Below, piece after piece: positions 1-21,835 of a stretch of DNA of 64,000 bases (its first letter is position 1; each line of letters starts with the position of its first letter). The position numbers and the translations under genes were made by a program. The stretch is from contig CAZMPY010000005.1 in the NCBI GenBank assembly GCA_964568665.1, forward strand, positions 64,742 to 128,741, in the 5' to 3' direction. The notes under the pieces are model-generated. The model was not told the origin of the DNA, made no database searches, and worked only from the letters and a program-made list of their open reading frames with translations. Origin of the DNA: an uncultured Thermoplasmata archaeon (GTDB lineage Archaea; Thermoplasmatota; Thermoplasmata; UBA10834).

Positions 1-1
1 A

Positions 2-217
2 TATGGGAGAAAGGGGAAAGGAGGTCACGCCGGTGGTCGCTATATCTGGTACTTGTCCAGAGCCGAAGAACTCGTGTTCTGCTGGAAGCCATTTGCGGAC
101 AAAGGGGCGGACCCAAAGGAACTAGAGTGCCACATGTTGAGATCATTCATGAATAGCCACGAGAATAGGCTGCCGTTCGCAAATCACAAATTTGAGTGCA
201 CTGAGAATGATCTCTAG
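2..217 (+). CDS. 3' end of a CDS cut by the window edge; possible GIY-YIG-like nuclease C-terminal part
   Basis: Frame 2 is open from the window edge to TAG at 215-217 (absent from the ORF track because no start lies in the window). The translation ...GGRYIWYLSRAEELVFCWKPF...ELECHMLRSFMNSHENRLPFANHKFE loosely resembles the E-x3-L...P-x-x-N end of GIY-YIG modules. This is a weak pattern match only. Confidence 0.25.
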   Translation, partial: YGRKGKGGHAGGRYIWYLSRAEELVFCWKPFADKGADPKELECHMLRSFMNSHENRLPFANHKFECTENDL

Positions 218-691
218 ACATACATCAGCAGGGAGTACGGGACAGACCATAGGACGGCATCTCCGATTCACAGTCACTGACTTGATTGGGAACAGTGAAA
301 GCCATTCAGAGTCGATATGATCTAGACGCTAGAAGAACGAGATCATCTGGAACTACTATCACATGGTAGTCAGCCCGGAAACCAGACAATGAAGAACCAC
401 AATAGGGTGGCAGAGTCGCACATTCACATCCAATAGGATGTACATTGAGAGAGGTCATAGCGTCATAGAGAGAGATGAGGCCTTTACTACGATCTCCCCT
501 CCAACTCCAGAATGAAGACTAGATCTAGGCTAGTGTTCGGGATTCGAGTCCTGCTGGGTCACTACAGCTATGCTAGCTCTTTCTCAATCAGCGGGGATTG
601 AGATTTCGGAGAATGCTCCTCACTCAAGTCTAATATATGCCAATCAGGTTACGAAAGCGCATCCAATTAGATTCGTGGAGGAGAGATACAA

Positions 692-1576
692 ATGAATGAC
701 TGGCTCGAAGGCAGAGAACTCTTGGCCCTTAATTGGCTGGTAGCCAACAGCGATGACTGCACAACAGAGACCACAAAAGGCTGGAATGAGGTGCAACAGG
801 GGCTGGCAGAGAACGCGGGTATCATAGATGAGGGTGGCTGTCGGAAGGTGTTAGAGACACTAACCGTTATGAATTTCATTGAGGGCAGCCATGGTTCTAC
901 CCTCAAGAGCTACGGTAGAGATTACACCACACCAGAAGTCCCAACTTACATATGGAAGCCCACTAAGAGGGGTATGGAGCAGGTAAGAAGAGAACGCCCT
1001 CGTCTGATTGTCTTGATGACTCGACTTCTTACCGGAAATGGAGCGATGGAGAAATCGATAGAGCAGGAGACAGTGCTAGAACGACTTGGAATTGAAGAGA
1101 CCATCGGGAACTCGATTGTAGAGCAACTTCATGAGGATGGAGAACTAGCTGTCCAGTTTGGAGGAACCATGCTTACGACCGCAAAAGGGGCATCAAAGGC
1201 GCTAGTTCCTCCACCCCCTACTGTAATTGATGAAGGAAGCAGATCCATCGTAGTATCCGGGGATGGGAATATGGTAATGACAGATTCTCCTGGGGCAAGC
1301 CAGAAGATGATTGAACAAGGGATATCTTCAGACCAGCTGATGTCCCTAATTGAGCATCTATCGGGATCTGCTGGAAGACTTCAGCTTATTGAGGAGAAGC
1401 AGAAGGAGCTCGAAAATGCAATCTCAGATCTCAGGGAAGAATCTGCGAAGGAGACACCTAGTCAAGGCAGGATAAAGGGGATTCTGAAGAAGATCTCGGC
1501 AATAGTCAAGACAGGAGGAGACGCCATGGTTGTAGCTAATGTCCTAAAGATCCTGCTTCCCCTGATCGTAATGTAG
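692..1576 (+). CDS. hypothetical protein (helical, coiled-coil region, hydrophobic C-terminal tail)
   Basis: 294-aa ORF. The ATG at 692 is preceded by GGAGGAG. No catalytic motif recognised. The C-terminus AMVVANVLKILLPLIVM is hydrophobic. Confidence 0.6.
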   Translation: MNDWLEGRELLALNWLVANSDDCTTETTKGWNEVQQGLAENAGIIDEGGCRKVLETLTVMNFIEGSHGSTLKSYGRDYTTPEVPTYIWKPTKRGMEQVRRERPRLIVLMTRLLTGNGAMEKSIEQETVLERLGIEETIGNSIVEQLHEDGELAVQFGGTMLTTAKGASKALVPPPPTVIDEGSRSIVVSGDGNMVMTDSPGASQKMIEQGISSDQLMSLIEHLSGSAGRLQLIEEKQKELENAISDLREESAKETPSQGRIKGILKKISAIVKTGGDAMVVANVLKILLPLIVM

Positions 1577-1827
1577 CCCCAACTGAAGCATCAAGTCGAA
1601 TGGCCACTACTTCGAAGGATATTGGACTGCGCCTGCCGTTCTTGACGGCCAGGCTGTCAACGAGCACCTCACCCCCCATTCCAACTTTGTATAGGCAGGT
1701 ATACATGATCCAAGAGGTCCATCGGTACTACCCCCATTGTAACATCGCATAGGGCAGGACACTTGGAGCGCCCGCTTCTCAGAAGGTGCAGCCCGATAGC
1801 CACCGTCACGGAAAGAATTATCATACG

Positions 1828-3030
1828 ATGACCTCAATCCCGCCCGTATCTGGTGACCGAATGGGGGAGAATGGTAGCATACCAACCATTGTGGCAAAGG
1901 CCGTTGTCGCATTAGCCGTCTTCCTCTTGGTATTCAGAGAGGCGTACAGAATAGCCGAACCACAAGTCGGCGGATGGTCATCAGTCATCCTCGCCGTAAT
2001 CACAGTAGCGATCGTAGAGGCCTCAGTATTTGGCGTCCTCAGTATCATTCCCAGCTGGAAACACAAGAAGAAGAGCGAATACGGTCAGGAAGAACACAAC
2101 TTCAGAGTGAAGTCTGCGCGAGCTAGATACTGCGAGCTTGGCATAGACGTTTCCAGCGGGCTCCTCAAAGCTCTGCCACCATTAGCAGTGACAAATCTGG
2201 CAGTCATCCTAGCCCTCAACCAATGGCTAGGCAAGGCGGCTCCGGAGGACATGTCCGACATCGAAAGGCTAGTTGACATCGCAAAGACATCATTCTCGTT
2301 CTTCGCTCTCGCTTTCCTGGCCGCGGCAATCCTCGCATGGAGACTGACGCCTGTCCGAGTAAAGAACGAAAGACACGCAGAATTGTCTAACATCAACGTC
2401 CTGGCAATAAAGACAGATGCGCTTGCCGCTCTAACAGTCTACAAAGGGGGAATGCCACGCCTTCAGCTTTCCACATTGAGACAAGGCGCCTTTGACGACA
2501 CAGGAAGACTAAACGAACAATGGACCAAACCGAACTGGAGAATTCACTCATCCGTGTCTGTAAAGATGCAGCAGAATCTTGCAGACCTCTATCCAGACCT
2601 CGTCAAAGAGATGGACATACTGCCAACGCTGATGGCGCAATATGTCAAGGACTTCAATACATACTCGACCGCATTTCAGACGGCATACGAGTCTCATCAG
2701 GGTCATAAAAACGGCTCCAGGCAACCGATCATGGACAACCACGCAAAGGGAAGAATCATCGGCTCGTACTTCTGGTACTCTGGTGAAATCCTAAGTCTGC
2801 AAGACCTAAACTATGTCAAACCGGACATAGTTCAAGAAGAAACAGCCAAGCAGTTTCTTCAAGAGTTCATCGAGGGCGATTCCTCAGATAGCAATAGTGT
2901 TTCAAACATGCAAAACCTGGACGAACTCAAGCAGCTGGCACAGATTGCACAAAAAACATGGAAAGAAGCACTGGATGAATACAACAAGATAATCAGCATT
3001 ATTGATGAAATTCATCGACGGAAAGCCTGA
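1828..3030 (+). CDS. hypothetical multi-pass membrane protein with long soluble helical C-terminal region
   Basis: ORF 1786..3030. First ATG at 1828 (alternatives: ATG 1861, GTG 1786). Hydrophobic segments AKAVVALAVFLLVF, SVILAVITVAIVEASVFGVLSII, LPPLAVTNLAVILAL and FSFFALAFLAAAILAW. No recognisable family. Confidence 0.55.
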   Translation: MTSIPPVSGDRMGENGSIPTIVAKAVVALAVFLLVFREAYRIAEPQVGGWSSVILAVITVAIVEASVFGVLSIIPSWKHKKKSEYGQEEHNFRVKSARARYCELGIDVSSGLLKALPPLAVTNLAVILALNQWLGKAAPEDMSDIERLVDIAKTSFSFFALAFLAAAILAWRLTPVRVKNERHAELSNINVLAIKTDALAALTVYKGGMPRLQLSTLRQGAFDDTGRLNEQWTKPNWRIHSSVSVKMQQNLADLYPDLVKEMDILPTLMAQYVKDFNTYSTAFQTAYESHQGHKNGSRQPIMDNHAKGRIIGSYFWYSGEILSLQDLNYVKPDIVQEETAKQFLQEFIEGDSSDSNSVSNMQNLDELKQLAQIAQKTWKEALDEYNKIISIIDEIHRRKA

Positions 3031-3302
3031 GTGTCGAACCCAGGCAGCCGCCCAGTCTGCTGCAGACCAAAAGAAGAAATGCAAAGGGTTTGACACTATC
3101 TCTCGAAACGGTTCCTCGGCAAGAAATTCCGGTCCGTGGAATTTCGGACCACTAGCCAGTCGTCTTCGTGGCACCTAATCCCATTGAACCCACAATAGGA
3201 CCGCAGTCTATGGACAATTCACGGGCATACAAGTTGTATCGATGCACACTCTTCCCACAGAACACTCAGTTAGCATGAATTGGAGCGGCCGTACGTAACG
3301 AT

Positions 3303-3403
3303 GAGAGGCATCGAGAGGGAAGAAGACGGATTGGAGAGGCATTCTCAGACCTTTAAATTCCGTTGAATCAGTATGCCTCTTGGGTCCGTCTCGGATGCCT
3401 CTC
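3303..3403. repeat. imperfect ~100-nt nested inverted repeat (three stacked helices), intergenic
   Basis: gagaggcatc (3303-3312) pairs with gatgcctctc (3394-3403). agacgga (3324-3330) pairs with tccgtct (3385-3391). agaggcat (3335-3342) pairs with atgcctct (3373-3380). A 16-nt direct repeat agacggattggagagg occurs at 3324-3339 and 3411-3426. Confidence 0.6.
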
Positions 3404-3689
3404 GATCTAGAGACGGATTGGAGAGGGAAAAGACGCATCGGGTCTCGGGGCGATTAATCGGCCGTTTCTCGAGTGAAATCCTGGTTACAGAATAAAAAAC
3501 GAGTAAGGAGTTTGGCTCGGAGGTAAAACCACTTGATTGACGAAAAGCCAGACGTTTCGATATGCACACGGCTCCGTGCACACCGCGACATCCGACCGCT
3601 GGTTCACATGCGATAGCATGCACGCGATAGAGGACCATTGCAGTGGAGAGAAGCCCTTAAGCCGTCGAGGACAATTCAGATTCAGGAGA

Positions 3690-3974
3690 ATGGCGATGAA
3701 GTGTCCTCACTGCGGCAAGAATAACCTGTTGCCTTTCGCTATGGTATGTAGATTCTGCGACAATGACATGAGTGAGCCGGCCAGCTCTGCAAACCTTGTC
3801 ACTTCGGACTCTGGTGCGGAGGGCGACGTGCATGAATTGGATAGAATCGCAAATGCGTTGGAGAGAATTGCCTCCGCGACTGAGAAGATTTTCCATCTCA
3901 TGCTAATCGTGGTATTGCTTAGTCTGTCTTCACTGGGAGTCATCTTGTTTATTGGGTATTGGACCATTCCATGA
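3690..3974 (+). CDS. small zinc-ribbon protein with C-terminal transmembrane helix
   Basis: Within ORF 3537..3974. The ATG at 3690 is preceded by AGGAG (3684-3688). CPHCG...CRFCD zinc-ribbon motif. C-terminal hydrophobic segment LMLIVVLLSLSSLGVILFIGYW. Confidence 0.6.
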   Translation: MAMKCPHCGKNNLLPFAMVCRFCDNDMSEPASSANLVTSDSGAEGDVHELDRIANALERIASATEKIFHLMLIVVLLSLSSLGVILFIGYWTIP

Positions 3975-4255
3975 ATGTCTGAGAAGGAGAAGCCGCCTTA
4001 CGCCGTCGTGAACGATTCGGAGACGGAGGAACGGCATTCGAGGAGGCGGTGATGGAGTCAGAATGGTGCGAACACCATGGAAAAGGAGTTTGACTGGAAC
4101 ACTGAATCGCCATACTGAGAAATGGCAGTAGTCAATGCATAGATTCGGCTCCCAGCACTGAATCGACAGATCCTCCAACGAACCCGCGCATCATTCTCAG
4201 GATCGTGAACCTTCAATATGGAGGATATGTTTATCGTAACCAGATAAGATGACAG

Positions 4256-4687
4256 ATGGCATATTCACCGAGGCCCAGAATGAAGAACCACCTAATCGCG
4301 CCTTGCGGAATGAACTGTGGCATATGTCTTGGCTATCTCAGAGATCGCAACAGATGCCCTGGCTGCAGGAGAATGGATGAGAGAGACTCCGGTCATTGCA
4401 GAAAATGCATCATAAGAGAGTGCCTGGTCCTTCAAGACCATAGGCTCAAGTTCTGTTCTGAAAGATGCGACAAGTATCCATGCAAGCGTCTCAAGGATCT
4501 TGACAGGAGATACCGCACAAAATATGGCATGAGCATGATAGGGAACCTTGAGAACATCGAGAAGACAGGCATAAGGGATTTCGTCAAGAAGGAAAGAACG
4601 AGATGGAAATGCGAGAAGTGCGGAAACACCATATGTGTGCATAGGGATCTCTGCCTGAAATGTGGAACAAGAAGAACGATTGTATGA
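4256..4687 (+). CDS. Cys-rich DUF3795-like protein
   Basis: 143-aa ORF. N-terminal APCGMNCGICLGYL motif, several further CxxC pairs, and a C-terminal CEKCG...CLKCG ribbon. Family assigned from memory of the DUF3795 CGxxCxxC signature. Confidence 0.65.
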   Translation: MAYSPRPRMKNHLIAPCGMNCGICLGYLRDRNRCPGCRRMDERDSGHCRKCIIRECLVLQDHRLKFCSERCDKYPCKRLKDLDRRYRTKYGMSMIGNLENIEKTGIRDFVKKERTRWKCEKCGNTICVHRDLCLKCGTRRTIV

Positions 4688-4903
4688 ATCAGAATGAATG
4701 AACAAGAAGACTCTCAGCCTCCAAATCACAAGAATCGAGAGATGACATGATATCGACGGACAACGCCATCGAATTCAAGAAGCTGATAGAGCACTGATGA
4801 GGTCGTCGGTCAGGTAATCTCAAAGTCGGCGCCCTGCACATCACGGTCTCCCTCAAGTCCCGGTCCCTGAATGCGGGCTCCGACATGTCGTGACGGAACG
4901 CAT

Positions 4904-5060
4904 TCAATCCTTCTCGAAGATGAACAGCTCATCCATAGAGGTCTTCAGGACCTCCGCGATGTCGTGAGCGAGCTTCAGGGACGGGATGTATTTGCCGTTC
5001 TCGATGAACAGGATCGTTTCACGCCGGACTCCTATCTTCCCCGTTCAGGCGTAAAAGACG
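4904..5060 (-). pseudogene. remnant of a small XRE-family helix-turn-helix regulator (no start codon, N-terminus lost)
   Basis: My own minus-strand translation gives ...[45 protein letters not shown], with the stop at 4904-4906. This matches the typical ~65-aa XRE core (LGVSRQTI..IE.GKY.PSL.LA.KIA..). The upstream in-frame sequence has a stop and no Met. Confidence 0.4.
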
Positions 5061-5407
5061 GGTACCAAGGACAAGGAAGGAATCATAGATATCGATGACG
5101 TCGAGATCACCCTTCTCCCACTATGGAGACTTCTTCTTCAGACATGAGCGCTCATTCGTAATCAGGCGAGACAATGCATTCGCCGTGGCTGCAGCCTGAA
5201 CACTGATTCGCATGAACACACTAGAATGTGCGAGGGCCCGGACATTGACCCAGAATGTGCAGGTGTCTAAATGTTGGAGCTTGAAAAATCAAGGTCGAAT
5301 TCCTTACCGGCAGAGAATCAGCATTCTGAAGGACAATGAGAATGAGAGGCTGGTTGTCTCTCACCAGACTAATTCAGATTCCTCCGGCTCAACGATCGCT
5401 CTGCACT

Positions 5408-5854
5408 CTAGTAGCTGTGCTCCCATTCGACAATTCCGAGCCGGAATATGTTAATCTGCAATACTCCCCCATCGCTCAGTAAGAATGGACACTCAAATTC
5501 CTGCCCTGGAAAGACAGAATACCGGAACGTGATCCCCCTCTCATCGAATCCCTTGAACTCGTGAATCTCTGTCCCATTGGAGATCACCGTCCCACTAGCC
5601 AACTTCACTCCGGTGTCGCTGATGACTATCTCATACTGGACATCCTCTGAATAGCATATGCTATTGACTTGTATCACGGCTTTGTTGGTGAGTCCCTCGA
5701 ATACATCAGTGCATAAGTAAGTCAGTGCAAGTGAAGTAACCACAACAATAGCGACTCCCACGGCAGTCAGCTTGGCCAATCTGAGTCTGCTTTTATCAGC
5801 TGCAGCCTTTCTATCATTTGTTGAATCAACCTGTCCCAACGCCACGCCCACCAA
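5408..5854 (-). CDS. hypothetical membrane-anchored protein
   Basis: 148-aa ORF. Only TTG/GTG starts are available near the 5' end. One N-terminal TM segment (LTAVGVAIVVVTSLALTYL) followed by a beta-rich region. Confidence 0.4.
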   Translation of the reverse strand: MVGVALGQVDSTNDRKAAADKSRLRLAKLTAVGVAIVVVTSLALTYLCTDVFEGLTNKAVIQVNSICYSEDVQYEIVISDTGVKLASGTVISNGTEIHEFKGFDERGITFRYSVFPGQEFECPFLLSDGGVLQINIFRLGIVEWEHSY

Positions 5855-5898
5855 GAGGGAATCGCTCTCGATGGCTTAAATGTTCTTCTCTGGCCTCA

Positions 5899-6965
5899 CT
5901 CTGTAGAAACCCTCTATAAAGCGACATTCTGGGAACGTAGAAACGTCGGCAAGATACGGCCCCTCCTGGAATCAAGTCAGTTCCGGTAAGAGTTGCCTTG
6001 GTTCCAGGATGGACGGCCTTTTGCCGTGGGATGGGAAGATGCCGAACCAGCATAAGCTGGTTCGTATCGTGGCGCGACAGAAGAGGGTCTTGAGGAGGGC
6101 CCGGTACCCTCTTCGGGATCGAAGTACGCGAACCACCTATACTCAGACCACCAACATGTGGTTCTGCTGGCGCTCCGCCAGCACTTCAGGAAGTCGTACA
6201 GGGACTTCTGCGACATTATCGAGGTCTGCACCCCGCTCCTCGCCGAGCTCGGTTTGAAGAGGGTCCCGCACTGGACGACTCTGCATATGCTCTCGAGGAG
6301 GGCGGACACGAGGAGGCTGGAGCGCCTCCTCCTGGGTTTCCTCCAGGAGGCGCGCCTGAGAGTGCTCTATCTGGCCGTCGATTCGACGGGCTTCAGTTCC
6401 ACTTCTGCGAGCACGTACTTCACCAGAGTGCTCGAGTCGAGGAAGAGCAGGCTGGGAGGACACCGTCGAGGTGTCCTGACGCGTCGTCATGTGAAGCAGA
6501 CGGTGGCTGTGGAGGCGAGGAGGCAACAGACCGTCTCGGTGAAGTTCAGGAGGGGCCTATCGAACGACTCGCCGGACTTCTCATGGGTGCTCAAGAAGGT
6601 GCGTCCAGCGGGGCTGCCGGTGAAGTTGGTGGTGACCGACAAGGGTTACGACGCTGAATCGAACCACGAGTACGCCCATAAGGTCCTGGATGCGCAGACA
6701 CTAATCCCGTTGAGGAACCAGGGGGTCGTGGTCTGGATGAGAAGGCGGTATAGGCGGAGGCTTAGGAAGGGGTTCGACGAGCGCGTTTACCATCGGCGGG
6801 TGAAGGTGGAGACGGTGTTCTCGGTGGAGAAGTGGAGGATGGGGCCGGTGGTGCTGGCTCGCGTTTCGAGCCAGCAGCAGAAGGAGCTCATCTTCCGAGC
6901 GATCGCGTACAACTCGTGGAGGTCGAAGACACTCCTTCTTCTCGTCATCGAGGATTTCTACAAAG
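5899..6965 (+). mobile_element. IS5/IS4-superfamily (DDE_Tnp_1-type) insertion sequence, possibly decayed
   Basis: Imperfect terminal inverted repeats: ctctgtagaaaccctc (5899-5914) against the reverse complement of gaggatttctacaaag (6950-6965), 14 of 16 matches. They enclose the DDE transposase ORF. No target-site duplication seen by eye. Confidence 0.55.
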
Positions 6966-7057
6966 CGCGTCAACGGCAAAGTTCATATCTTTGCCTGGTA
7001 TTCTCTGTGTTGCAGGTCTTGGACCTGCGTGGGTTCGAGAGAGGATGGTTAACATGA
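6158..7057 (+). CDS. DDE transposase (IS5/IS4 type)
   Basis: Motifs LAVDSTGF, VVTDKGYDAESNHEY and VETVFSVEKW (D, D, E). GTG start at 6158. The in-frame upstream extension (..KYANHLYSDHQHVV) has no ATG/GTG/TTG and stops at 6053-6055. The ORF reads about 90 nt past the right inverted repeat. Confidence 0.75.
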   Translation: MVLLALRQHFRKSYRDFCDIIEVCTPLLAELGLKRVPHWTTLHMLSRRADTRRLERLLLGFLQEARLRVLYLAVDSTGFSSTSASTYFTRVLESRKSRLGGHRRGVLTRRHVKQTVAVEARRQQTVSVKFRRGLSNDSPDFSWVLKKVRPAGLPVKLVVTDKGYDAESNHEYAHKVLDAQTLIPLRNQGVVVWMRRRYRRRLRKGFDERVYHRRVKVETVFSVEKWRMGPVVLARVSSQQQKELIFRAIAYNSWRSKTLLLLVIEDFYKARQRQSSYLCLVFSVLQVLDLRGFERGWLT

Positions 7058-9180
7058 GTGATAGAGCGGGGCACATTTGGGCAAGAAGAGTATATGGCAT
7101 GGCATTCTGTGCCATTCTGGCCATGTTGGTGTCATCATGCATGCAGAATGCTAGCGCAAGTGCGGAGATAGATGATTCGGGAATGACTGCGGATTACGTA
7201 CTCTGCGGCCTCGGAGCTTTTGAACGACGCATATCCGTGTTAATAGAAGGCGAGAATCTTGGCTCGTACGCAGCCGTTGATGAAGTTTCAGATTCGATGG
7301 GCGGCAGAGTATTGGTGATCTCAGATGAGAACTTCCCCACCGGTATCACGAAGGAATCGTGTGACCAGATACTGAACGACGGTGGCTCAATCGTTGTGCT
7401 TGGAAATGGAGAGGCGCTGCGTGTCATTAATGGACTTCCAGCTGAGGTTCTCTCTCCAACTATCACACTCAACAAGGCTCGTATGTCCATAGATGAAACT
7501 GGGAATGAGACAGTCTTGAGTGAAAGCGTTCCTCAACGTGTTCAGAGTGAAGCAGTTTTCAGCCTTTATTGTATGAGACTCAGTTCTGCGGGGGAAATCG
7601 ACCAGAGGTACATTGAGGTACCATCGACGCGAGTTATCGAGAAGATCGTCGACGTGCTGAGGTGGGCGAAGGAGGTCGCGCCAGACACTACAGCGTTTGT
7701 CGATTCGGCAAAGTCACAGGAACTCACCTCGTCTGCGATTGAAGCAGAGTTACTGGAATCAGATACTATTGGATCGGACTGGACAGCAACTAATACGTAT
7801 GTGTACGAATACTATCATGACGAGACGACCCTGGATATTCACATAGTCATGTACTTCTACAAGCTCAACGACATCTACTCTGGTAATGACTACTACCTCG
7901 CCGAGATTTCGACTTACACATACATTGAGAACTACGAAGCCGAATACACAGGAGGTGTCGGGTGGTATCTCAACTACAGGTACAACAAGGTTGACGTGAA
8001 CTACTATGATGATGTGTTCCACCACAGCGATTGGCTGGAGTTTGGGCCGACCACAACTCTCTCTGGCGATTCAATTACCTACACTGTCGGACTTCAGGTC
8101 AGCAGCGCATCAGTCGGCGGCAGTGTCGGCGTTTCGCGCACCGTACCGAAGCCAGACGTGTACATCTACGCAGAATACAGCAGTACTGATGAGTGGATAG
8201 AATGGACGGAGGACTTCACGAATCCCAGTTATACATGGTATCCAGTGATGACAGAACCTGCTGAAGTCTCCCACTACGCATACTCTACAATGCATTCAAT
8301 AGTAATCCCCATTGACGGTGGCGCCTCAAGCTCTCCGAATGGCCTCAAGATGCCGTTCTGGTACAATTTCGAGATCTGCAAGGATGACAATTTTGACTAC
8401 TACCTCCTAGTCCTCAATTGGGACCATTGGAGCTACACTTTGAATTTCGCGCCATCGTATTCTTCGGGAACTTACACGTCCTATGCATCGCTGATCAGTC
8501 CTCAAGATGGGGCAACCGGTGTGGCCACGTATGTGACATTAGATTGGACTGGGCCGAGCACCGCAGACTACTGGTATGTCCAATGGTACAGCAATCCTAC
8601 CTACCCAAATGGTGCTTACACTACGGCGACTGAGAAGACGGTCAGCCTGGGTACCTCGACTACCTACACTTGGAAGGTCTGGTCGCAGAGGAGCACTGAC
8701 AATGTCTGGGGTTATGCAAACACCAACAGTTTCACGACGTACTTAGTTTCTGGTGGAGGCTGTCTGCTGAAGGGTACGAGTATCACACTGGCCGATGGCA
8801 CAACCCTTCCGATTGAGAAGATACGGGCAGGCATGGAACTGCTGGGATTCGATATCGAGAACAATACGTTTCTGACAGAAACGGTGGTGTACACCGATTC
8901 TTCGAGAGCGGAGACAATGCTGGTAATAAATGACGGCCTGCTGGTGACGACGCCGTACGATCAGCCAATCTTCGTCCGGAACGGTGATTTCACTGGATGG
9001 TTGATTAATCCCGCAGATCTGGAAATCGGTTGGGAAGTCTTCTGTCCTCTGGACAATTTGTGGGTCGAGGTCACCAGTCTAGAGTATGTTGACGGGAGCT
9101 TCAGAGTCTATGATATTGGCACAACTGCACCGGACAACTATATTGCCAATGGAGTTCTCGTCGACCTGAAGAAGAAGTGA
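7045..9180 (+). CDS. secreted/anchored protein: signal anchor, Tyr-rich beta domain, FN3-like domain, C-terminal Hint (hedgehog/intein-like) module
   Basis: ORF 6832..9180. ATG at 7045 (alternative 7054) chosen because it follows GAGAGAGG, lies outside the transposase, and gives the N-terminal hydrophobic segment MAFCAILAMLVSSC. FN3-like segment at 8494-8739. Hint module at 8761-9177. Confidence 0.8.
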   Translation: MVNMSDRAGHIWARRVYGMAFCAILAMLVSSCMQNASASAEIDDSGMTADYVLCGLGAFERRISVLIEGENLGSYAAVDEVSDSMGGRVLVISDENFPTGITKESCDQILNDGGSIVVLGNGEALRVINGLPAEVLSPTITLNKARMSIDETGNETVLSESVPQRVQSEAVFSLYCMRLSSAGEIDQRYIEVPSTRVIEKIVDVLRWAKEVAPDTTAFVDSAKSQELTSSAIEAELLESDTIGSDWTATNTYVYEYYHDETTLDIHIVMYFYKLNDIYSGNDYYLAEISTYTYIENYEAEYTGGVGWYLNYRYNKVDVNYYDDVFHHSDWLEFGPTTTLSGDSITYTVGLQVSSASVGGSVGVSRTVPKPDVYIYAEYSSTDEWIEWTEDFTNPSYTWYPVMTEPAEVSHYAYSTMHSIVIPIDGGASSSPNGLKMPFWYNFEICKDDNFDYYLLVLNWDHWSYTLNFAPSYSSGTYTSYASLISPQDGATGVATYVTLDWTGPSTADYWYVQWYSNPTYPNGAYTTATEKTVSLGTSTTYTWKVWSQRSTDNVWGYANTNSFTTYLVSGGGCLLKGTSITLADGTTLPIEKIRAGMELLGFDIENNTFLTETVVYTDSSRAETMLVINDGLLVTTPYDQPIFVRNGDFTGWLINPADLEIGWEVFCPLDNLWVEVTSLEYVDGSFRVYDIGTTAPDNYIANGVLVDLKKK
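8761..9177 (+). other. Hint domain (139 aa) at the extreme C-terminus
   Basis: Starts GGG|CLLKGTSITLADGTTLPIEKI (block A with Cys1). Ends YDIGTTAPDNYIANGVLVDLKKK*. The usual TxxH His appears replaced (VTTPYDQPIF) and the terminal His-Asn is replaced by Val-Asp. No C-extein follows. Confidence 0.7.
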
Positions 9181-9216
9181 CACCCGAGACATCGTGAAGA
9201 CCAAACACTAAGTCAA

Positions 9217-9234
9217 ACGGGGGGCATCCCCCGT
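9217..9234 (+). terminator. hairpin about 37 nt downstream of the Hint-protein stop
   Basis: acggggg (9217-9223), loop gcat, cccccgt (9228-9234). A second hairpin is ggatgc/gcatcc at 9281-9299. A T4 run lies between them. Function is inferred only. Confidence 0.25.
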
Positions 9235-9360
9235 CATTACATTTCTCATGTCCCGTCTTTTGCACCTCGATTGTGAGAAGGGATGCGGTCCGTGCATCCT
9301 GACCTTGACAGTTGCTCCGCTCTGATTCCATGACTTTCAAGATTTGACAGGTCGTTCAAA

Positions 9361-11101
9361 CCCATCTTTTACAGTTCATTGAGCCAGCACTCCCGCCGAT
9401 AGCTTGAAAACGTCCTGACTCGATGCCTTCCCGGGATGCATTATGGGAACCTCTCCAAAGAAGAAGGATTCAGGAGAGGGGGGAGTGACGGTCGAGTACG
9501 GCACGGTGAAGGCGCTCCACGCCATCGCGGAGCGGATCGGGTTGATAGACACCGTCAACCAGGCAGCCCCGAAACGGAACGGGCTGCCGGTCGGCGAGCT
9601 GGCGTTCATCATGGCCGCGAACCGGCTCCTTGATCCGCGCCCCAAGTACACGATTGCCGAGTGGTATCAGAGGACGTACATGCCCGAGATCATCGGCATC
9701 GACCTTCCTCCGGACAGCGCCTACCAGACGCTGACGCGGTGTCTGGACTATCTCACGGACGATGTCCAGATGGAGATAGAGATGGCCCTCGCCGCCCGCG
9801 TGATGGAATCGTTCCACCTCAAGCCCGAGAGCTTCATCTACGATGTCACCTCGACCTTCGTCGAGGGTGAAGGCGGGGCCGAGATACTCCAGTACGGGTA
9901 CTCGAGAGACCATCGTCCTGACTGCCGCCAGGTGAACTACTCGCTGTGCGTGACGATGGACCCGACGGTGCCGCTCTTCCACGAGGCGTTCCCTGGCAAC
10001 ACCGTCGATTCGAAGACCGTCAAGGAGACGATGGTCCGGTTCAAGGACAAGCTGGGACTGGACGGATGCCTCGTCGTCGACCGAGGCATCGTCACGAGCG
10101 CAAACATCGTCGAGATTGTCGACGAGAGGAAGCTGGACTTGGTCGGCGGCCCTCGCATGGACAGGCGCTTCAGGGCGTTCGCCCTGAAGACATCGCTCAA
10201 GTCGTTCGGGAAGCCGTTCACATTGAAGGACGAGGCCCTCCAGGCGAAGGAGTTCTCCGTCGACATCGGAGGAAACGACCGCCGGTGCATCCTGTACTAC
10301 AGCGAGGAGAAGGCGGAGCGGGACAAGAAGTCCAGAGACATACGCCTGGCCAGGGTCAAGGAAGGGATGGAGGAGGTGGCCGCATCCCTCACGAGAGAGG
10401 GAGCGGGCCGGAAGCCGACGAGGAACGGCCTCGAGAGGCGGATCGTTCTCCTGCTGGAGAAGAGCCACTGCGAGAGGCTCATCGAATGGCGCCTCGTCGG
10501 CGGCAGGGGCGGTAGGCGCCTGAAGTGGGAGCTGAACGAGGCGGCCATCAAGGAGGAGGAGGTACTGGACGGGCGGTACTGGCTCGTGACCATCCTCAAC
10601 GACTCACCGAAGAATGTCATCGAGACATACCGCGCCAGGGACGCGGTGGAGCGGGGGTTCAGAATCACGAAGGAGACGATCAAGATACGGCCCATCTGGA
10701 ATCACACTGAGCAGCACATCAAAGCACACCTGTTCGTGTGTTTCATCGCGTACCTGTTGTACTCGCTTCTGGAGATCGAAGCGAGGAAGGAGATCACTGG
10801 CATCACCGGGACGAAGGCCCTGGACCGGCTGAGGAAGTTCACGGAGTGTTCGACCCGTCCAAGGTACATGACGCCGACAGGGGAGGACATCGCCCTGCTG
10901 TCTCGCGTCTCTCGCGTGAGATAGTTGCCAAGCGGCCGGCACCCAGAAGTCCAGCGAGAGCAGTCTCACGAGGAGCGGTGAGACCGCTACGACGTTTGCC
11001 TCAAGATGAGAAGGGGTTCATCGCACAGGGATCTCCACGGTTCTCCCAGCGCAGATGGCACAGATCGCCCCTCGTCTCGTGACTGAACTGTAAAAGATGG
11101 G
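9361..11101 (+). mobile_element. IS1634-family insertion sequence (1741 bp)
   Basis: Perfect 18-bp terminal inverted repeats: cccatcttttacagttca (9361-9378) and tgaactgtaaaagatggg (11084-11101). They flank the transposase. No obvious target-site duplication. Confidence 0.8.
9443..10924 (+). CDS. IS1634-family transposase
   Basis: 493-aa ORF with the hallmark YGYSRDHRPDCRQV...FPGNTVDSKT, VVDRGIVTS, and YRARDAVERGFRITK. Confidence 0.85.
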   Translation: MGTSPKKKDSGEGGVTVEYGTVKALHAIAERIGLIDTVNQAAPKRNGLPVGELAFIMAANRLLDPRPKYTIAEWYQRTYMPEIIGIDLPPDSAYQTLTRCLDYLTDDVQMEIEMALAARVMESFHLKPESFIYDVTSTFVEGEGGAEILQYGYSRDHRPDCRQVNYSLCVTMDPTVPLFHEAFPGNTVDSKTVKETMVRFKDKLGLDGCLVVDRGIVTSANIVEIVDERKLDLVGGPRMDRRFRAFALKTSLKSFGKPFTLKDEALQAKEFSVDIGGNDRRCILYYSEEKAERDKKSRDIRLARVKEGMEEVAASLTREGAGRKPTRNGLERRIVLLLEKSHCERLIEWRLVGGRGGRRLKWELNEAAIKEEEVLDGRYWLVTILNDSPKNVIETYRARDAVERGFRITKETIKIRPIWNHTEQHIKAHLFVCFIAYLLYSLLEIEARKEITGITGTKALDRLRKFTECSTRPRYMTPTGEDIALLSRVSRVR

Positions 11102-11235
11102 CTGGAGACGGCTGGTGAATCACATGCAGAGCGTGTCTATTTGTGAGTTTGGCTTGACCATATGACATCTTGTGATACGGACCTCTAAGGGCTCCAGTGC
11201 CCATCCCAGTAATCCAGATCTCGAAAACGGTCAGA

Positions 11236-11805
11236 CTATTGGCCTCGGCTTCGGGAGAACCTGTTCAATGATACGGAGATTTCCTTCAGGTACTCTGTCT
11301 GCTTCTTCTGGTAGTAGTCTGGAGATTCTTCCGAAAGCGTGTCAATCTTGCCCAGAGAATCCCGAAACAATCCCAGTTCCAGGCTAGGAGATAGGGAGTG
11401 AATCTTCCCTCGAATGTCGGCGCAAGCGACTGCAAACCGAAGGCGGTCGAATTTCAGCAAGCTCTCGATTTGCTCGAACTCTCGCGGCAGAAGTACGGTC
11501 GCACTCTGTTTCGACAGAAGTGATGGATATGCCCATTCAAAAGAAAGCCCCTCTGGCTCCGATCTGGCCTGAACGCGTATGTCATACGCAACGCCCTCAC
11601 CTATGTTCTCAAATCGAAGAGAAATAATCATCGGTCCAAAGAAGTTGATGGCTGGGGCAATAACTGGCTGGATTGCGAAATCCAGTTCATCTCTCATCGC
11701 CCTTGCCATGCTCTTCGAATACCATACGTAAGCAGCGGTTGCTACTACGAGTGCCGCCGCTAGAACTGTCTGAGCGACTAGTAGCGCTTCTTCCAGATGA
11801 CCCAC
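11236..11805 (-). CDS. hypothetical protein with N-terminal TM helix
   Basis: 189-aa ORF with a GTG start. TM segment LLVAQTVLAAALVVATAAYVW. Divergent from the HEPN gene (67-nt spacer to its ATG). Confidence 0.5.
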   Translation of the reverse strand: MGHLEEALLVAQTVLAAALVVATAAYVWYSKSMARAMRDELDFAIQPVIAPAINFFGPMIISLRFENIGEGVAYDIRVQARSEPEGLSFEWAYPSLLSKQSATVLLPREFEQIESLLKFDRLRFAVACADIRGKIHSLSPSLELGLFRDSLGKIDTLSEESPDYYQKKQTEYLKEISVSLNRFSRSRGQ

Positions 11806-11872
11806 CTCTCTGCACCTGCAGATTCGTACAAGTACTTTCCATTTTCCTTCACTATCAGATTTCCTGAAGTTG

Positions 11873-12742
11873 ATGAAGATTCAATTGGATTGCAGAAAAG
11901 AATATCGGCAGCTTGTGCATTCAGTGGCACAGTGGTTTGACAGCGAGGGAAGGTCATTGGCGAGCGTAGAGGAATTGCATAAGGACATTCAGGATTTCAT
12001 CAAATTGGTGTGCCCCAAGAAGGTGACAGGGCTTCAAGGGAGAACCGATCTTGAGCTCCTGGACAAGATAATTGGCGACTGGAAGAGTCTTTCGAGGATT
12101 GTTAAACTCGAGGAACCCGCCTCGGAGAGGCTAGGAGAACTGATTCAGAAATGTGTCTATGAGCGGGGGAAACCTCATCCACTCAAGAATACAGTCTGCA
12201 AGAGCCTGAAAGAGTTCAATCTCATATTCTACTCCAAAGTGGTCGTTGAGGCGAGAGCGCATCAGTATGGTCTCGTACATCATGATCTCCTCTTGACCTT
12301 GGACAGGTTCGAGACCTCACTGAAGGACCCCACCGAGAGAGACTACTTCGCTGAGGCAAGAAACTGCATTGGCAACAATCTCTACCGGTCATTCATTGTG
12401 ATGTCGTGGAACGTCGTGATGTATCGACTCTACAAGCTGGTGGAATTCACGGGCTACGATGACTTCATCAAGGCCTACTGTCAGGTCTACCCCAGACACA
12501 AGAAGCCGAATCTGAGCAGCTTGGAGGACTTCTTCGACATTTCGGATTCCCAGGTTATTGAGGTTGCCTCGAACAAGTCAATAAAACCTCACATCATTGA
12601 CAAACACCAGAAGGAGATGCTTCTTAGAAACTTGCGCATCCGGAATATGGCCGCACATGTATCCACTAGCTTTGTCCCGAGGAACGCTACTGTGCTAGGG
12701 TATGTAGAGGAGATTGTGGACTCATTCCTCAGCCGAACCTGA
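11873..12742 (+). CDS. HEPN-domain protein (putative RNase/abortive-infection-type effector)
   Basis: ATG at 11873 (the track starts at TTG 11870). The C-terminal helical domain carries R-N-M-A-A-H (Rx4H, nt 12641-12658) in the context LLRNLRIRNMAAHVS, preceded by the AEARNCIGNNLYRSFIVMSWNVVMYRL helix typical of HEPN. Confidence 0.6.
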   Translation: MKIQLDCRKEYRQLVHSVAQWFDSEGRSLASVEELHKDIQDFIKLVCPKKVTGLQGRTDLELLDKIIGDWKSLSRIVKLEEPASERLGELIQKCVYERGKPHPLKNTVCKSLKEFNLIFYSKVVVEARAHQYGLVHHDLLLTLDRFETSLKDPTERDYFAEARNCIGNNLYRSFIVMSWNVVMYRLYKLVEFTGYDDFIKAYCQVYPRHKKPNLSSLEDFFDISDSQVIEVASNKSIKPHIIDKHQKEMLLRNLRIRNMAAHVSTSFVPRNATVLGYVEEIVDSFLSRT

Positions 12743-13228
12743 ATCCACCGGTTTCTCTACCCCCTTGATGTAAGTGAATCGAGAATCCTGCGGCGTTGTG
12801 CCAGTTCGCGTCATGGACTTGCCTAGCCCCCGTCTGAGGGCTGCATAGACAGACCCTTCTTTCACATGCAGACCGTATTTCTCCTTGAGTATGGCATTCA
12901 CTTCGGCAGCAGTGATATTCACTAACTGGCCTTTTGCGCCAAGCTCCTTCAGGTTCTTGGAAATAAAGGGCTGCCTCGTCCCCCCTCTAGCATCCTTCTT
13001 TCTGTCAGATTTGTCGGTGTCTTCGGGCTTTGCGTTACCAGCTGACAGTTCCTCTTCTCGAATTTCCTGACCTGCTATCGGTCCAGATGACGACAAGGTT
13101 TCCTCGAAAGTATCAATGAGCTCGACTATCTTCTCATTGATTGCGCTGTCGATACTGCCGCTCCCTTCAATCTCAATCTCCGACTCACCGATTCTAAGTC
13201 TACACTTCAGTCGTGGAGTTTCATCCAT
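12722..13228 (-). CDS. hypothetical protein (acidic/Lys-rich linker, possible C-terminal winged-helix)
   Basis: ORF 12722..13252. The ATG at 13228 has GGAGG 9 nt upstream. Its 3' end overlaps the HEPN gene by 21 bp, in convergent orientation. Confidence 0.5.
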   Translation of the reverse strand: MDETPRLKCRLRIGESEIEIEGSGSIDSAINEKIVELIDTFEETLSSSGPIAGQEIREEELSAGNAKPEDTDKSDRKKDARGGTRQPFISKNLKELGAKGQLVNITAAEVNAILKEKYGLHVKEGSVYAALRRGLGKSMTRTGTTPQDSRFTYIKGVEKPVDSGSAEE

Positions 13229-13510
13229 GCGACCATTCCTCCGAAGAACCAAGTTCCCACACAGAGAAGGATGTTCTATGAGTTATTCTTTTCAGTCGGC
13301 CCGAAGGACGTGCCCAACGGCACCGACGAGTATCTTGGCAAGGAGAAAGGGTTTGGGGACAGGCTATGGCGAATTGCCAGCCAGACGGTTTTGAGGCCCT
13401 GAATTGGGGCTCCTAAACGTTTTTGTAATCCTCTGCGTAAGACTCGATTCCGCAGGCGTACGGTTGGATTCCCCACCTATTTATAGAAAGAGCGATGAAA
13501 AGGTTTATAT

Positions 13511-13546
13511 CTCGGTACAAAAACCCTCTGATTGAAAAAGAGCCAG
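13511..13546. repeat. 36-nt conserved intergenic motif, copy A
   Basis: ctcggtacaaaaaccctctgattgaaaaagagccag matches 32678-32713 at 32 of 36 positions. Confidence 0.6.
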
Positions 13547-13708
13547 GCATCGCGATTCAGAGTCGGCTCCCTGCACATTCCAGATACTCCCGACCCGATC
13601 CCTCGCGGCACTTCAGAACCGACAGGGCAAGAGATCACGTCCCTGGCGCAAGCACACGAATCCCGCGAACGGCCACACATCTCCGACAGTCGGAGTGGAA
13701 GTACCGCC

Positions 13709-14620
13709 CTATTCGATCAGACCACGATTGCGAAGACGCTCCCGCTCCCAGGTCCTGAAGTCGACCGGAGGAGCGACGACCTCGGCATCGGGCTTCCTCT
13801 CGAGCCTTGCCGCGCCGCTCGGGCATCCCGTCACGCACAGGCCGCACCCGATGCACTTCGCGCGGTCCACGACCGAAATGCCGTCCGCTCCACCTATGGC
13901 ATGGACCTGACACCTGTCCTCGCATATCCCGCACCCGGTGCATTCCTCGGGGTCGATGCGGGCCAGGTAGTTGGCGGAGGCCACGGAGTTCTCGATGCCA
14001 AGGTCAGTGATCCCCCTCAGCAGGCCGCAGCAGCACCCGCAGCAGTTGCACACATAGCCTATCCCTTTCATGACATTGCTCACGGTGTGGACCAGGCCCA
14101 GCCGCTCCGACTCATCGAGGAACGCCAGCGCCTCCTCCTTCGAGATGGATGACCCGTGCGTCGGGCCCTCGTTCTCCGAGAACGAGAGGCACGTCCTCAG
14201 GGGGAAGCTGCACTCGTGGCCCATCAGCTTCTGCTGTTCCCTGCAGATGCAGTCCCTGAGCGTGAAGGACTTGGACCGCAGCAGGACCGCCTTCACATCA
14301 TCGTACGGGAGTATCTGCTCCGACTTGACCGCCTTCTGGGCCGGGACGACCCTGTGTATGGCCGGCTGCGGTCTCATGATGCCCTCCGCCCCACCACCCG
14401 AGAGGTACTCTTCCACCAGGTGAGCCAGCTCGTGGTCGAGTGTGCTCGACTCGTATATCCCCACGATGAACGGGGCCAGGCGGAACACGTGCTTGCCATC
14501 CTGCTCGTGGCTCCAGAGCAGCCCCTTCCCGACCATGTTCAGGAGCTTCGTGCTCGTCTCTTCAGGGGAGAGTCCCGCGCGCAAGGCTATCGCGTCCGCG
14601 GTCTCATCGTCGCGCCCCAT
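13709..14620 (-). CDS. 4Fe-4S dicluster domain protein with CNCCGCCC motif (true N-terminus probably extends to about 14758)
   Basis: CxxCxxCxxxC motifs (CTGCGICEDRC, CIGCGLCVTGC) plus CNCCGCCCG. The frame stays open for 46 codons upstream of the ATG and encodes a conserved-looking SDIVYENLADALNRLPNGFPRTSTKVEIRILKRLF. Confidence 0.85.
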   Translation of the reverse strand: MGRDDETADAIALRAGLSPEETSTKLLNMVGKGLLWSHEQDGKHVFRLAPFIVGIYESSTLDHELAHLVEEYLSGGGAEGIMRPQPAIHRVVPAQKAVKSEQILPYDDVKAVLLRSKSFTLRDCICREQQKLMGHECSFPLRTCLSFSENEGPTHGSSISKEEALAFLDESERLGLVHTVSNVMKGIGYVCNCCGCCCGLLRGITDLGIENSVASANYLARIDPEECTGCGICEDRCQVHAIGGADGISVVDRAKCIGCGLCVTGCPSGAARLERKPDAEVVAPPVDFRTWERERLRNRGLIE

Positions 14621-21200: not shown

Positions 21201-21835
21201 ACGCCAAGGGCGGTATAACCCTAGGGTTCAGCCCCGGCAACCTGATCACGGGGAGCGTGGTCTCCTCCGTCCACTGGGGGGTCTACATCTCAGACTCGCC
21301 GGGGACCACCGTGTGGTCGACAAGTGCCCATGACTGCGACTACGGCATACATGTGCTGAACTCGCCGTCCTGCTTGGTAGTGAACTCGGCCGTCTCCATG
21401 TGCGATTACGGGATGTACTTCCAACAGTCCGACGGGTTCTCCGTGCTGAACAACTCCGTCACTGACTGCTACTCGTACGGCATCCAGGTGTTCGCGACTT
21501 CGTACGGCGACATCAGGCACAACCTGATCACCCGCGGGTTGCAGAGCGGGCTGGACCTGGTGGAATCGAACGGGATCCTTGTGGCATCCAACGACTTCGT
21601 CGACAACTCGATCCAGGCGTCGGAGGGAGCGGATCTGACAGGCAACCTCTGGGACGGCGGATACCCGGTCGGGGGCAACTACTGGAGCGACTACCAGGGC
21701 GTGGATGAGTACAGCGGGGCTGACCAGACAGAACCAGGCCCCGACGGCATCGGGGACACGCCATACGTGCTCACCTCGGGAAGCGTGGACAGATATCCGC
21801 TCATGAGCCCGTACACCCCTACGACCGGTCTATGA
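18281..21835 (+). CDS. giant surface protein with an internally duplicated [PKD - beta-helix - DGIGDTPY] architecture
   Basis: 1184 aa. Signal anchor. PKD-like motifs (ITWDWDDGS, VRWDWESDGIWD twice). Two long beta-helix blocks, each ending GGNYWSDY.G.DEYSG.DQTEPGPDGIGDTPYVLTSGS.D.YPLM. Confidence 0.85.
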   Translation: MNRSKAWSLGLLNSSKALASIIIIIALAVTSAAAAVTLSGQGSSDRTASAGPTIISMQADMDEAYVDQVVAWQVLASAHISGDKDSSLLITWDWDDGSYTVVHVEYTVDDSIVTDAETHAWCEAGTYEVVVSVWDGYKTESNTVHNVSAATTLTVLPIESNTPPVASFQVEPAEGTINTLFTFDASSSFDFEDPLESISVRWDWESDGIWDTDYSTDKSAEHQFAALGSYSVTLEVMDSCGMTDWTSRHVEVIGSTTLTPHDPIVIGHDTEFVYENGVVGGAGTAEDPYIIGGWLIEAYDGNAIDVQNAQRCFVIRDCELIGDVNTSGSGIYLDEDDCASVERVSISGFYFGIRAVDSGELSIYSCQVEWNANGISVFVAGSVDIGLNTVSNNCVGAGNGEGISVSSGEYVSMFGNTAEGNRNSPLRVYDCGFASIINNTAAGQVLVIMTESFVAYNTIESGGMHFWGCSNSDVVGNAIGKEGVLSYLFGIEYTSCTDLRIRYNTVNSFYYGIGTHYAAEPPTYSENVVIEENTISGCVGSALRIYYISNLLIAGNGIMGCSLGLDITSTASYVTVYHNDIIDNAVQASESPLCIGNTWDDGYPSGGNYWSDYEGTDEYSGVDQTEPGPDGIGDTPYVLTSGSHDNYPLMTPFAYRPENSGPVANFTVSPQAGPMETVFVFDASSSWDLEDDLSELAVRWDWESDGVWDVDYSTEKTATHQFADPGCYVVALEVMDSGGLTSIAQMGVTVMDTSVLTLHDPIYISGDLHFAAVAAEEMWAGDGTESDPYIIELLDMSAEYATFQIYIEDTTVHFAIRDCLFSGASASAIYLTDVAHVTVQESLFLSCPSISIYCEQCTDMTFLNNDVIGGARCLSLIRCTDAYLGNNTVEGAEWYPLCIESSYNVTLRENRFQGAGIKLGGYLASHWNSHDIDDSNFVNYEPVYYIKDRVGGSVPSEAGQIILANCTGMTVECDAKGGITLGFSPGNLITGSVVSSVHWGVYISDSPGTTVWSTSAHDCDYGIHVLNSPSCLVVNSAVSMCDYGMYFQQSDGFSVLNNSVTDCYSYGIQVFATSYGDIRHNLITRGLQSGLDLVESNGILVASNDFVDNSIQASEGADLTGNLWDGGYPVGGNYWSDYQGVDEYSGADQTEPGPDGIGDTPYVLTSGSVDRYPLMSPYTPTTGL
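20168..20209 (+). repeat. 42-bp segment identical to 21743-21784 (internal gene duplication)
   Basis: gacggcatcggggacacgccatacgtgctcacctcgggaagc is present twice within the same CDS. Confidence 0.8.
21743..21784 (+). repeat. second copy of the 42-bp identical segment
   Basis: Identical to 20168-20209. The flanks are diverged. Confidence 0.8.

Follow-up and report, generated by a model that had tools for sequence, protein, structure and literature searches.

A C-terminal Hint module, nearest to bacterial intein-like domains, on a predicted exported protein of an uncultured Thermoplasmata archaeon

The window analysed here is a 64,000-nucleotide stretch (64 kb) of contig CAZMPY010000005.1 from an uncultured Thermoplasmata archaeon, and one of its genes (7045..9180, + strand, ATG at 7045, stop codon at 9178-9180) encodes a 711-amino-acid exported protein that ends in a module of the Hint superfamily. 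The gene product is interpreted, with a probability of roughly 0.55, as an archaeal (Thermoplasmata-like) protein that is exported by the Sec route and either secreted or held at the surface, and whose C-terminal module is an autoprocessing Hint domain resembling those called bacterial intein-like (BIL). The predicted reaction is an N-S acyl shift at G572/C573 with cleavage on the N-terminal side only. The interpretation draws on the fold of the module and on a family of such modules, best explained as a generic C-terminal cassette that may serve many unrelated archaeal extracellular cargos. The open reading frame (ORF) and the motifs quoted in an initial annotation, made from the letters of the window, are all present where they had been placed, and an identical 711-amino-acid protein occurs in NCBI, JGI and Logan assemblies.

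Fold and active-site positions of the module

By profile comparison and predicted structure, the C-terminal 139 residues (C573-K711) are a genuine but divergent Hint domain, the module proper extending from C573 to L708 (8761..9168, +) according to AlphaFold2, Foldseek and a family profile compared with the PDB. The initial annotation had the correct length and the correct start at the Cys after Gly-Gly-Gly, although its residue numbering (572-711) was off by one. No Pfam Hint model reaches its cut-off with the window protein (Vint, 18.7 bits with a cut-off of 27; Intein_splicing, 19.2 bits with a cut-off of 35.8), whereas the NCBIfam model TIGR01443 (intein_Cterm) exceeds its own with the single sequence (20.2 versus 15.6 bits). 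The top PDB match of the single sequence is the BIL domain 2lwy (E=6.5e-4). A profile of 33 family members matches BIL2 (6tmm/6y75) with E=1.4e-13 and the BIL domain 2lwy with E=2.6e-13, inteins with approximately 1e-5, and Hedgehog HhC chains with E=0.07-0.75. The AlphaFold2 model of residues 560-711 (the module and the 13 residues before Cys573) has a predicted local distance difference test score (pLDDT) of 92 and a predicted template modelling score of 0.84. With this model, Foldseek retrieved BIL2 6y75 at a template modelling score (TM) of 0.79 (E=1.6e-10), 2lwy at TM 0.75/0.82, mini-inteins at TM near 0.7 and Hedgehog 1at0 at TM 0.69; there were 64 PDB matches at E<=1e-3, and the 50 listed are all BIL, intein or HhC structures at TM 0.62-0.79. 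Thus the Hint fold that had been proposed was borne out, as was the layout of exported cargo, Gly/Cys and terminal Hint that had been likened to Hedgehog and BIL proteins alike, with the refinement that the module is much nearer to BIL domains than to Hedgehog in both sequence and modelled structure. A tblastn search with the module found no second Hint copy in the window.

The module is entered through a Gly-rich junction (G570-G571-G572/C573, 8752..8763, +, with the Gly run at nt 8752-8760 and Cys573 at nt 8761-8763), which holds the predicted scissile bond and nucleophile; Cys573, the first residue of the module, occupies the block A nucleophile position and is Cys in 135/136 members of the family described below. 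In block B (T635-T-P-Y-D-Q640-P641, 8947..8967, +), Gln640 lies where the catalytic His would be and Pro637 where the TxxH motif has its Thr, and the profile alignment to 2lwy sets V-T-(P/L)-T-D-Q-P of the family opposite K-T-T-F-D-H-P. The catalytic set is non-canonical, as first noted, with more than the block B His replaced: in place of TxxH the window protein reads P637-Y-D-Q640 and the family (P/L)-x-D-Q, with Gln in 133/136 members and His in 3/136. Asp690 (9112..9114, +), in a V-Y-D motif, is Asp in 129/136 members and probably corresponds to the block F Asp, given the order of motifs and the established intein nomenclature.

Block G and the tail (A701-N-G-V-L-V-D707-L708-K709-K-K711, 9145..9177, +) form the end of the protein (...DNYIANGVLVDLKKK; ...ANGVLVDLKKK); D707 there takes the place of the penultimate His, L708 that of the Asn and K709 that of the "+1" residue. 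The register is that of canonical relatives reading ...NG-x-L-V-H-N-K-GGG/C and of BIL2, whose ANGVLAH lies opposite angiLld of the family; the initial assignment of Val-Asp (V706-D707) to the terminal His-Asn has to be shifted to D707-L708. Family members end block G in D-x-K (about 90 of 136), x-D-K (about 39) or H-N-K (3), and the Lys is present in 132/136. An intein would carry Asn (or Gln or Asp) followed by Cys, Ser or Thr at +1, and here the sequence closes with D707-L708-K709-K-K and a stop codon four residues past D707, the last strand residue. The module is therefore not a classical intein, as had been recognised, since it has no terminal Asn and its C-extein would amount to a three-residue Lys tail. 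That nothing follows the module is correct as regards a splicing partner, but K709-K710-K711 do follow, and the first of them is the conserved family Lys.

A family of terminal Hint modules

A word-indexed homology search recovered the protein itself from the full-length query and one relative from the module alone, and a locus search with a four-sequence alignment recovered just two genome loci and one short metagenome locus. An exhaustive HMMER search recovered 1,105 cluster representatives with E<=1e-3, of which 386 reach E<=1e-10. Counts out of 136 refer to those of its 150 top matches that have a single module ending 0-11 (mostly 0-5) residues before the stop codon. Far from being a singular oddity, the module belongs to a family of at least 136 divergent clusters at 50% identity with interchangeable cargo. 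Their proteins are about 130 to 1,467 amino acids long, and their modules average about 45% column identity. The survey of the GGG/C junction that had been suggested gave, besides the near-invariant Cys, Gly at positions -5, -4, -3, -2 and -1 in 50, 73, 87, 99 and 126 of 136 members, respectively. The alignment of the 136 modules also has the block B pattern L-x-(V/L)-T-(P/L)-T-D-Q-P-(I/L)-Y, Trp invariant at two positions, and the terminus F-(I/V)-A-N-G-x-L-x-(D-x or x-D)-K. The window protein, which matches the family hidden Markov model (HMM) with E=2.1e-59, has every family element: the Gly run and Cys, T-x-x-D-Q-P, V-Y-D, A-N-G-x-L-x-(D-x/x-D)-K, the stop and an export signal. To judge from these alignments, strong purifying selection acts on the nucleophile, the Gly junction and the single residue that uniformly replaces the block B His.

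Among the 107 members that start with Met, 71 have a strong N-terminal hydrophobic segment, several of them with a similar N-(A/T)-S-A c-region, and none has a transmembrane segment downstream of the module. The cargo domains of the family include InlB B-repeats, CarboxypepD_reg, PKD, Ig, dockerin and cohesin domains as well as A4, kumamolisin and M12 peptidases. The modules nearest to that of the window (55% and 53% identity) are attached to unrelated cargos, and those attached to the two homologous cargos come 24th and 51st in similarity. Relationships among modules do not follow those among cargos, as befits a generic cassette for sorting or processing, and this suggests that the Hint cassette has been shuffled among cargos. 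The members that were looked up are annotated as "hypothetical" or unnamed. Family members match six different Hint Pfams weakly (best E 3e-7), and there is therefore no dedicated Pfam model; since the family lies under every Pfam Hint threshold, a separate model for it is warranted. The literature searched contains no account of an archaeal family of C-terminal Hint modules, although subscription journals may hold one, for example in later BIL-type surveys; C-terminal Hint modules on many surface proteins appear to form a large family that had not been described.

The contigs are archaeal wherever their taxonomy is readable, from metagenome-assembled genomes (MAGs) of Thermoplasmata and Micrarchaeota or with the markers HFX_2341_N, HTH_HVO_0163_N and deoxyhypusine synthase, and the same Gly-run/Cys junction recurs at loci L001, L002, L003, L005, L006 and L007. 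Proteins of the window have cluster mates labelled Thermoplasmata archaeon. A Thermoplasmata MAG locus encodes a 682-amino-acid protein with the junction ...CGGGGGC/VAF, and locus L002 of a Ca. Micrarchaeota MAG (1021-6417) encodes a 1,798-amino-acid protein with many InlB-type repeats, a terminal Hint module and the junction ...GGDGGGC/ILG. The N-terminus of the latter (...QSAMEYMITYSWAILIIAVAVAL...; QSAMEY) is similar to the class III (type IV pilin-like) signals of archaea. Micrarchaeota and Thermoplasmata are known symbiont-host partners, and from these two data points a transfer of a Hint family gene between them is possible. On one archaeal contig (L015, 10001-12808 and 15021-17627), two paralogous proteins with dockerin domains and InlB B-repeats, encoded about 2 kb apart, are both Hint-terminated, so that one genome can hold several copies of the family.

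No neighbouring gene is conserved across 11 independent contexts of Hint-terminal genes. A small ORF (...FSLLEITSGLPDDSREADE...AERRLRDLRGRVK...) recurs near the Hint-terminal genes of one closely related subclade, with four copies at L003 (e.g. 7815-8258) and occurrences at L005 (approximately 759-1463, - strand) and L006 (3-641). It was rejected as a partner, being multi-copy, variable in orientation and devoid of a signal peptide, transmembrane segment or Pfam match, and has the appearance of a repeated or mobile gene specific to its lineage.

Two relatives align over the whole length of the window protein, P0006 (36% identity) and P0007 (33% identity), with sizes of 685 and 729 amino acids. 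P0007 has the full canonical set, namely C1, the block B His and a terminus of V-H-N-K-PIRG followed by the stop; two members besides P0007 retain H-N, and three members have the block B His. The complete set of P0007 together with the three His-bearing members indicates that the family descends from an active-type module, and comparison of these sequences makes the active-site state in the window a derived one, reached from a canonical module like an A-type BIL. Relatives with tandem modules are canonical: in P0116, P0043, P0032, P0031 and P0144, block B reads T-x-(E/D)-H-P, the modules end in ...V-H-N-K, the V-H-N-K of one module is followed by the G-G-G/C-F of the next, and matches to PT-HINT score 92-187 bits. 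These five proteins and P0105 contain 2-7 tandem canonical Hint modules arranged head to tail, and in P0116 and P0043 a signal peptide stands directly before GGG/C, after which come 3-5 modules and a Tim44-like domain. Whole Hint strings would be released or spliced out if all junctions were active.

Predicted autoprocessing and its alternatives

In the proposed mechanism, the module would fold after export and Cys573 would attack the carbonyl of G572 in an N-S acyl shift to form a thioester. The role of the block B His would fall to Gln640 and its neighbour Asp639, which would form hydrogen bonds to the tetrahedral intermediate and stabilise it, with Asp690 retained; the amide of a Gln side chain can stabilise an oxyanion, Gln19 of papain being an example. 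A few natural inteins lack the block B His and compensate by another residue that stabilises the tetrahedral intermediate (PMC6333167). Neither C-terminal cleavage nor splicing can take place, because a terminal Asn for cyclisation and a C-extein beyond KKK are both missing, and for the same reason an external nucleophile would have to resolve the thioester, parting the cargo, which would end in ...SGGG, from the 139-residue module. The thioester would either be hydrolysed, so that the cargo is released or matured, or pass the cargo to an acceptor with an amine or hydroxyl group.

Several points are counted in favour of activity: the module has the Hint fold and an affinity to the BIL clade; it lies at the very end of exported proteins with diverse cargos; the closest solved relatives resolve their Gly/Cys thioester with amines (PMC8616854, PMC7765530); the Cys and the Gly junction are the most conserved features of the 136 modules; most of the near-invariant polar residues (the Gln at the block B position, the V-Y-D Asp and the +1 Lys) lie at canonical active-site positions; a substitution as uniform as that by Gln is not random decay; and the lack of a conserved neighbour gene fits autocatalysis. 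Other observations weigh against it. The block B Thr and His and the block G His and Asn are all substituted. In the Ssp DnaB intein, the precursor with H73A and the native Gly at -1 was stable, and only bulky residues at -1 rescued the acyl shift (PMC6333167); this inert combination is the one found in the family, with its prevalent Gly at -1, and activity of the present module is therefore not to be assumed. The survey of the 11 contexts identified neither an acceptor nor a partner, and the Cys could owe its conservation to a different function, for instance in binding a metal or carrying a covalent adduct. Taken together, the sequence data make a catalytically active module somewhat probable.

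The foremost alternative is a catalytically dead Hint domain, in which case the full-length protein is the mature form and its last domain has a structural or adhesive role or anchors the protein non-covalently. The four substituted catalytic residues, the unreactivity of Gly(-1) without the block B His in the model intein (PMC6333167) and the scores below every Pfam Hint cut-off would all be accounted for. A dead domain is not expected, however, to keep its first Cys and its Gly run across sequences approximately 40% identical, nor to fix one replacement at block B and a Lys at +1, and a disulfide role for Cys573 is unsupported, as no second conserved Cys was found in the 136-module alignment. 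Loss of catalysis is thus a possible reading, though a rather unlikely one.

If the module is active, a special case would be ligation, in which the thioester passes the cargo to a surface lipid head group, a Lys of an S-layer or other protein, or a glycan, so that the C-terminal Gly of the cargo becomes covalently linked with neither ATP nor an enzyme of the sortase kind. On diverse cargos the module stands where a C-terminal sorting or anchor signal would be, with no transmembrane segment or other anchor after it, and other exported proteins of the window end in a C-terminal transmembrane helix and basic tail. The top structural relative, BIL2, conjugates the C-terminal Gly of its N-extein to lysines (PMC8616854), and Hedgehog passes its N-terminal domain to cholesterol (PMC7765530). 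However, no acceptor, extension resembling a sterol-recognition region or conserved partner gene was found, some cargos (peptidases, dockerin proteins) need no covalent anchor, and every point against activity applies equally. Transfer of Gly572 to an amine or hydroxyl of the envelope or of a partner cell, as an autocatalytic, enzyme-free and ATP-free archaeal mode of C-terminal attachment, is by this analogy a doubtful proposition, and so, to the same degree, is the notion of a prokaryotic equivalent to Hedgehog cholesteroylation and BUBL lysine conjugation that works with a Gln-based active site.

A reaction within the protein is considerably less probable. The epsilon-amine of K709 could attack the thioester to give a rearranged, isopeptide-linked protein that keeps the module, since nearly all members and the canonical H-N-K relatives have Lys where inteins have their C-extein nucleophile, both Hint junctions meet in the active site (PMC7765530), and BIL2 chemistry ends in a Lys isopeptide (PMC8616854). 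Such a rearrangement has no apparent benefit, though, the Lys is equally conserved in the tandem H-N-K-GGG/C relatives, where Asn cyclisation is available, and its role may be catalytic, electrostatic or structural instead. That the gene is a classical or degenerate intein, or was cut short by the insertion sequences whose transposase genes lie on both sides of the ORF, is effectively refuted: over 130 divergent proteins encoded on unrelated contigs share this terminal architecture, their stop codons lying 0-5 residues past the Lys, so that it does not result from truncation, the whole-length relatives are similar in size, the downstream insertion sequence starts 176 nt past the stop codon, and the module lacks both the Asn and a homing endonuclease, on a host that is not a conserved housekeeping protein.

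Comparison with known systems returns to the predicted BIL-like autoprocessing module, which on these motifs is a Hint superfamily member nearest to BIL domains that lacks defining features of inteins, Hog domains, A- and B-type BILs and PT-HINT. Its closest likeness, in profile and fold, includes the BIL domain of Clostridium thermocellum (2lwy), presumably an A-type BIL. In common with BILs it is a Hint domain of exported, variable, non-housekeeping proteins behind a Gly/Cys-type N-junction, and BILs auto-cleave at their N- or C-termini without obligatory splicing (PMC7765530). BILs have been described in bacteria, however, and embedded with sequence on both sides, whereas the module of the window is terminal and archaeal. 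A-type BILs keep His-Asn and B-type BILs keep all intein motifs except the C-terminal one (PMC7765530). The window family differs from both, with (P/L)xDQ at block B and with His-Asn replaced by D-x or x-D before the conserved Lys: D707-L708 in the window, and H-N in only 3/136 members, depart from the A type, and the absence of TxxH and a terminal position, rather than one embedded in hypervariable bacterial regions, depart from the B type.

The BIL2 domain of Tetrahymena thermophila BUBL1 (6y75/6tmm), the top match by structure and profile, shares a Gly-Gly/Cys junction after a cargo domain, and its thioester is resolved by a lysine epsilon-amine to give an isopeptide bond without ATP (PMC8616854). 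It differs in being eukaryotic and cytosolic, with ubiquitin-like domains on both sides, a block B His (H69) and a C-terminal Asn (N143). Hedgehog and other Hog proteins (1at0) share the order of exported cargo, Gly/Cys and C-terminal Hint, and cleave at the N-terminal side only, without Asn cyclisation, an external nucleophile resolving the thioester (PMC7765530), a scheme that is predicted for the window module as well. They are distant by profile and by fold, keep TxxH and have a sterol-recognition region after the Hint domain that recruits cholesterol, whereas no sterol- or adduct-recognition region follows the present module and family tails are mostly 0-5 residues; the Hog Hint model PF01079 has no match in the window protein and matches 5/84 family members weakly. 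PT-HINT (PF07591) and tandem arrays such as P0116, P0043 and P0144 are the nearest canonical relatives recovered and share the Lys after the module and the GGG/C junction (...V-H-N-K-G-G-G/C-F...), but the tandem relatives keep the block B His and His-Asn and are internal or tandem, followed by domains such as the Tim44-like one. PF07591 does not match the window protein, matches 11/84 family members weakly (best E 1.3e-5), and no toxin domain follows the window module. An intein is inserted at a conserved site of a host protein that splicing restores, and the present modules are terminal on unrelated cargos, with no C-extein. The sortase LPXTG signal, the archaeosortase PGF-CTERM signal and the C-terminal domain of the type IX secretion system are functional analogues without homology, alike in being generic C-terminal cassettes on unrelated exported cargos. 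Those systems need a dedicated transpeptidase, whereas the Hint cassette would be autocatalytic and has no conserved partner gene.

If active, the family would represent a third natural cell-surface use of Hint chemistry, in archaea, beside Hedgehog lipidation and BIL processing, in which the "essential" block B His is systematically Gln beside Gly(-1), a combination inert in the model intein. It would be informative for intein mechanism and for the engineering of His-free, Gly-tolerant thioester-generating tags, and would bear on the maturation or attachment of surface proteins of Thermoplasmata and DPANN archaea that have neither transmembrane nor PGF-type anchors. If inactive, it would still be a sizeable unannotated domain family, with at least 136 clusters at 50% identity, all "hypothetical".

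Signal peptide, cargo and genomic surroundings

Residues 1-40 (7045..7164, +) form a predicted Sec-type signal peptide with a basic n-region (RAGHIWARRVYG), a hydrophobic core (MAFCAILAMLVSS) and the c-region QNASASA/E, at which cleavage is predicted. A lipobox at V29-S-S-C32 is the less likely reading, as the N-A-S-A-type c-region shared with relatives favours signal peptidase I. The cargo region (residues 41-569, 7165..8751, +) is rich in Tyr and Trp and has no Pfam or NCBIfam match, with zero Pfam matches even at E<=10, so the labels "FN3-like" and "Tyr-rich beta" given to it at first could not be confirmed. Its AlphaFold2 model (residues 36-571, five sequences) has a pLDDT of 37, too low to use. 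Among the relatives from the exhaustive HMMER search, the cargo is common only to P0006, P0007 and, in part, P0118 and P0131.

The gene lies within the low-GC first 14 kb or so of the window (1-14000), which has approximately 49% GC outside two insertion sequences, compared to 58-65% in the rest, and is possibly a horizontally acquired or variable region. Most ORFs in it have no Pfam match; weak PADLOC matches are those of 692-1573 to PDC-M14B (E=6e-7) and of 11870-12739 to PD-T7-3 (E=2e-5). Upstream, a DDE_Tnp_1 transposase ORF (6158-7057, 299 amino acids) runs over the ATG at 7045 and ends 13 nt inside the 5' end of the Hint gene; this element, for which clear terminal repeats could not be found, may have displaced the native promoter of the gene. 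Downstream is a complete insertion sequence (9356-11106) with 23-nt terminal inverted repeats (91% complementary) and a gene for a 493-amino-acid DDE transposase (9443-10924). The two flanking transposases were rejected as a composite transposon, because their ORF sizes and DDE_Tnp_1 matches differ and clear inverted repeats are found only downstream.

The Hint protein has no C-terminal transmembrane anchor, unlike other exported proteins of the window. Beyond the low-GC region, divergent genes (14903-17818, - strand, and 18281-21835, + strand) encode giant exported NosD/beta-helix proteins, one of them also with PKD; the 14903-17818 protein ends in a transmembrane helix and basic tail, and the 18281-21835 protein has no recognisable anchor. 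At 56456-56546, within a mechanically called ORF (55240-56988), ARAGORN predicts an over-long tRNA-His (GTG) of 91 nt, possibly an intron-containing archaeal tRNA.

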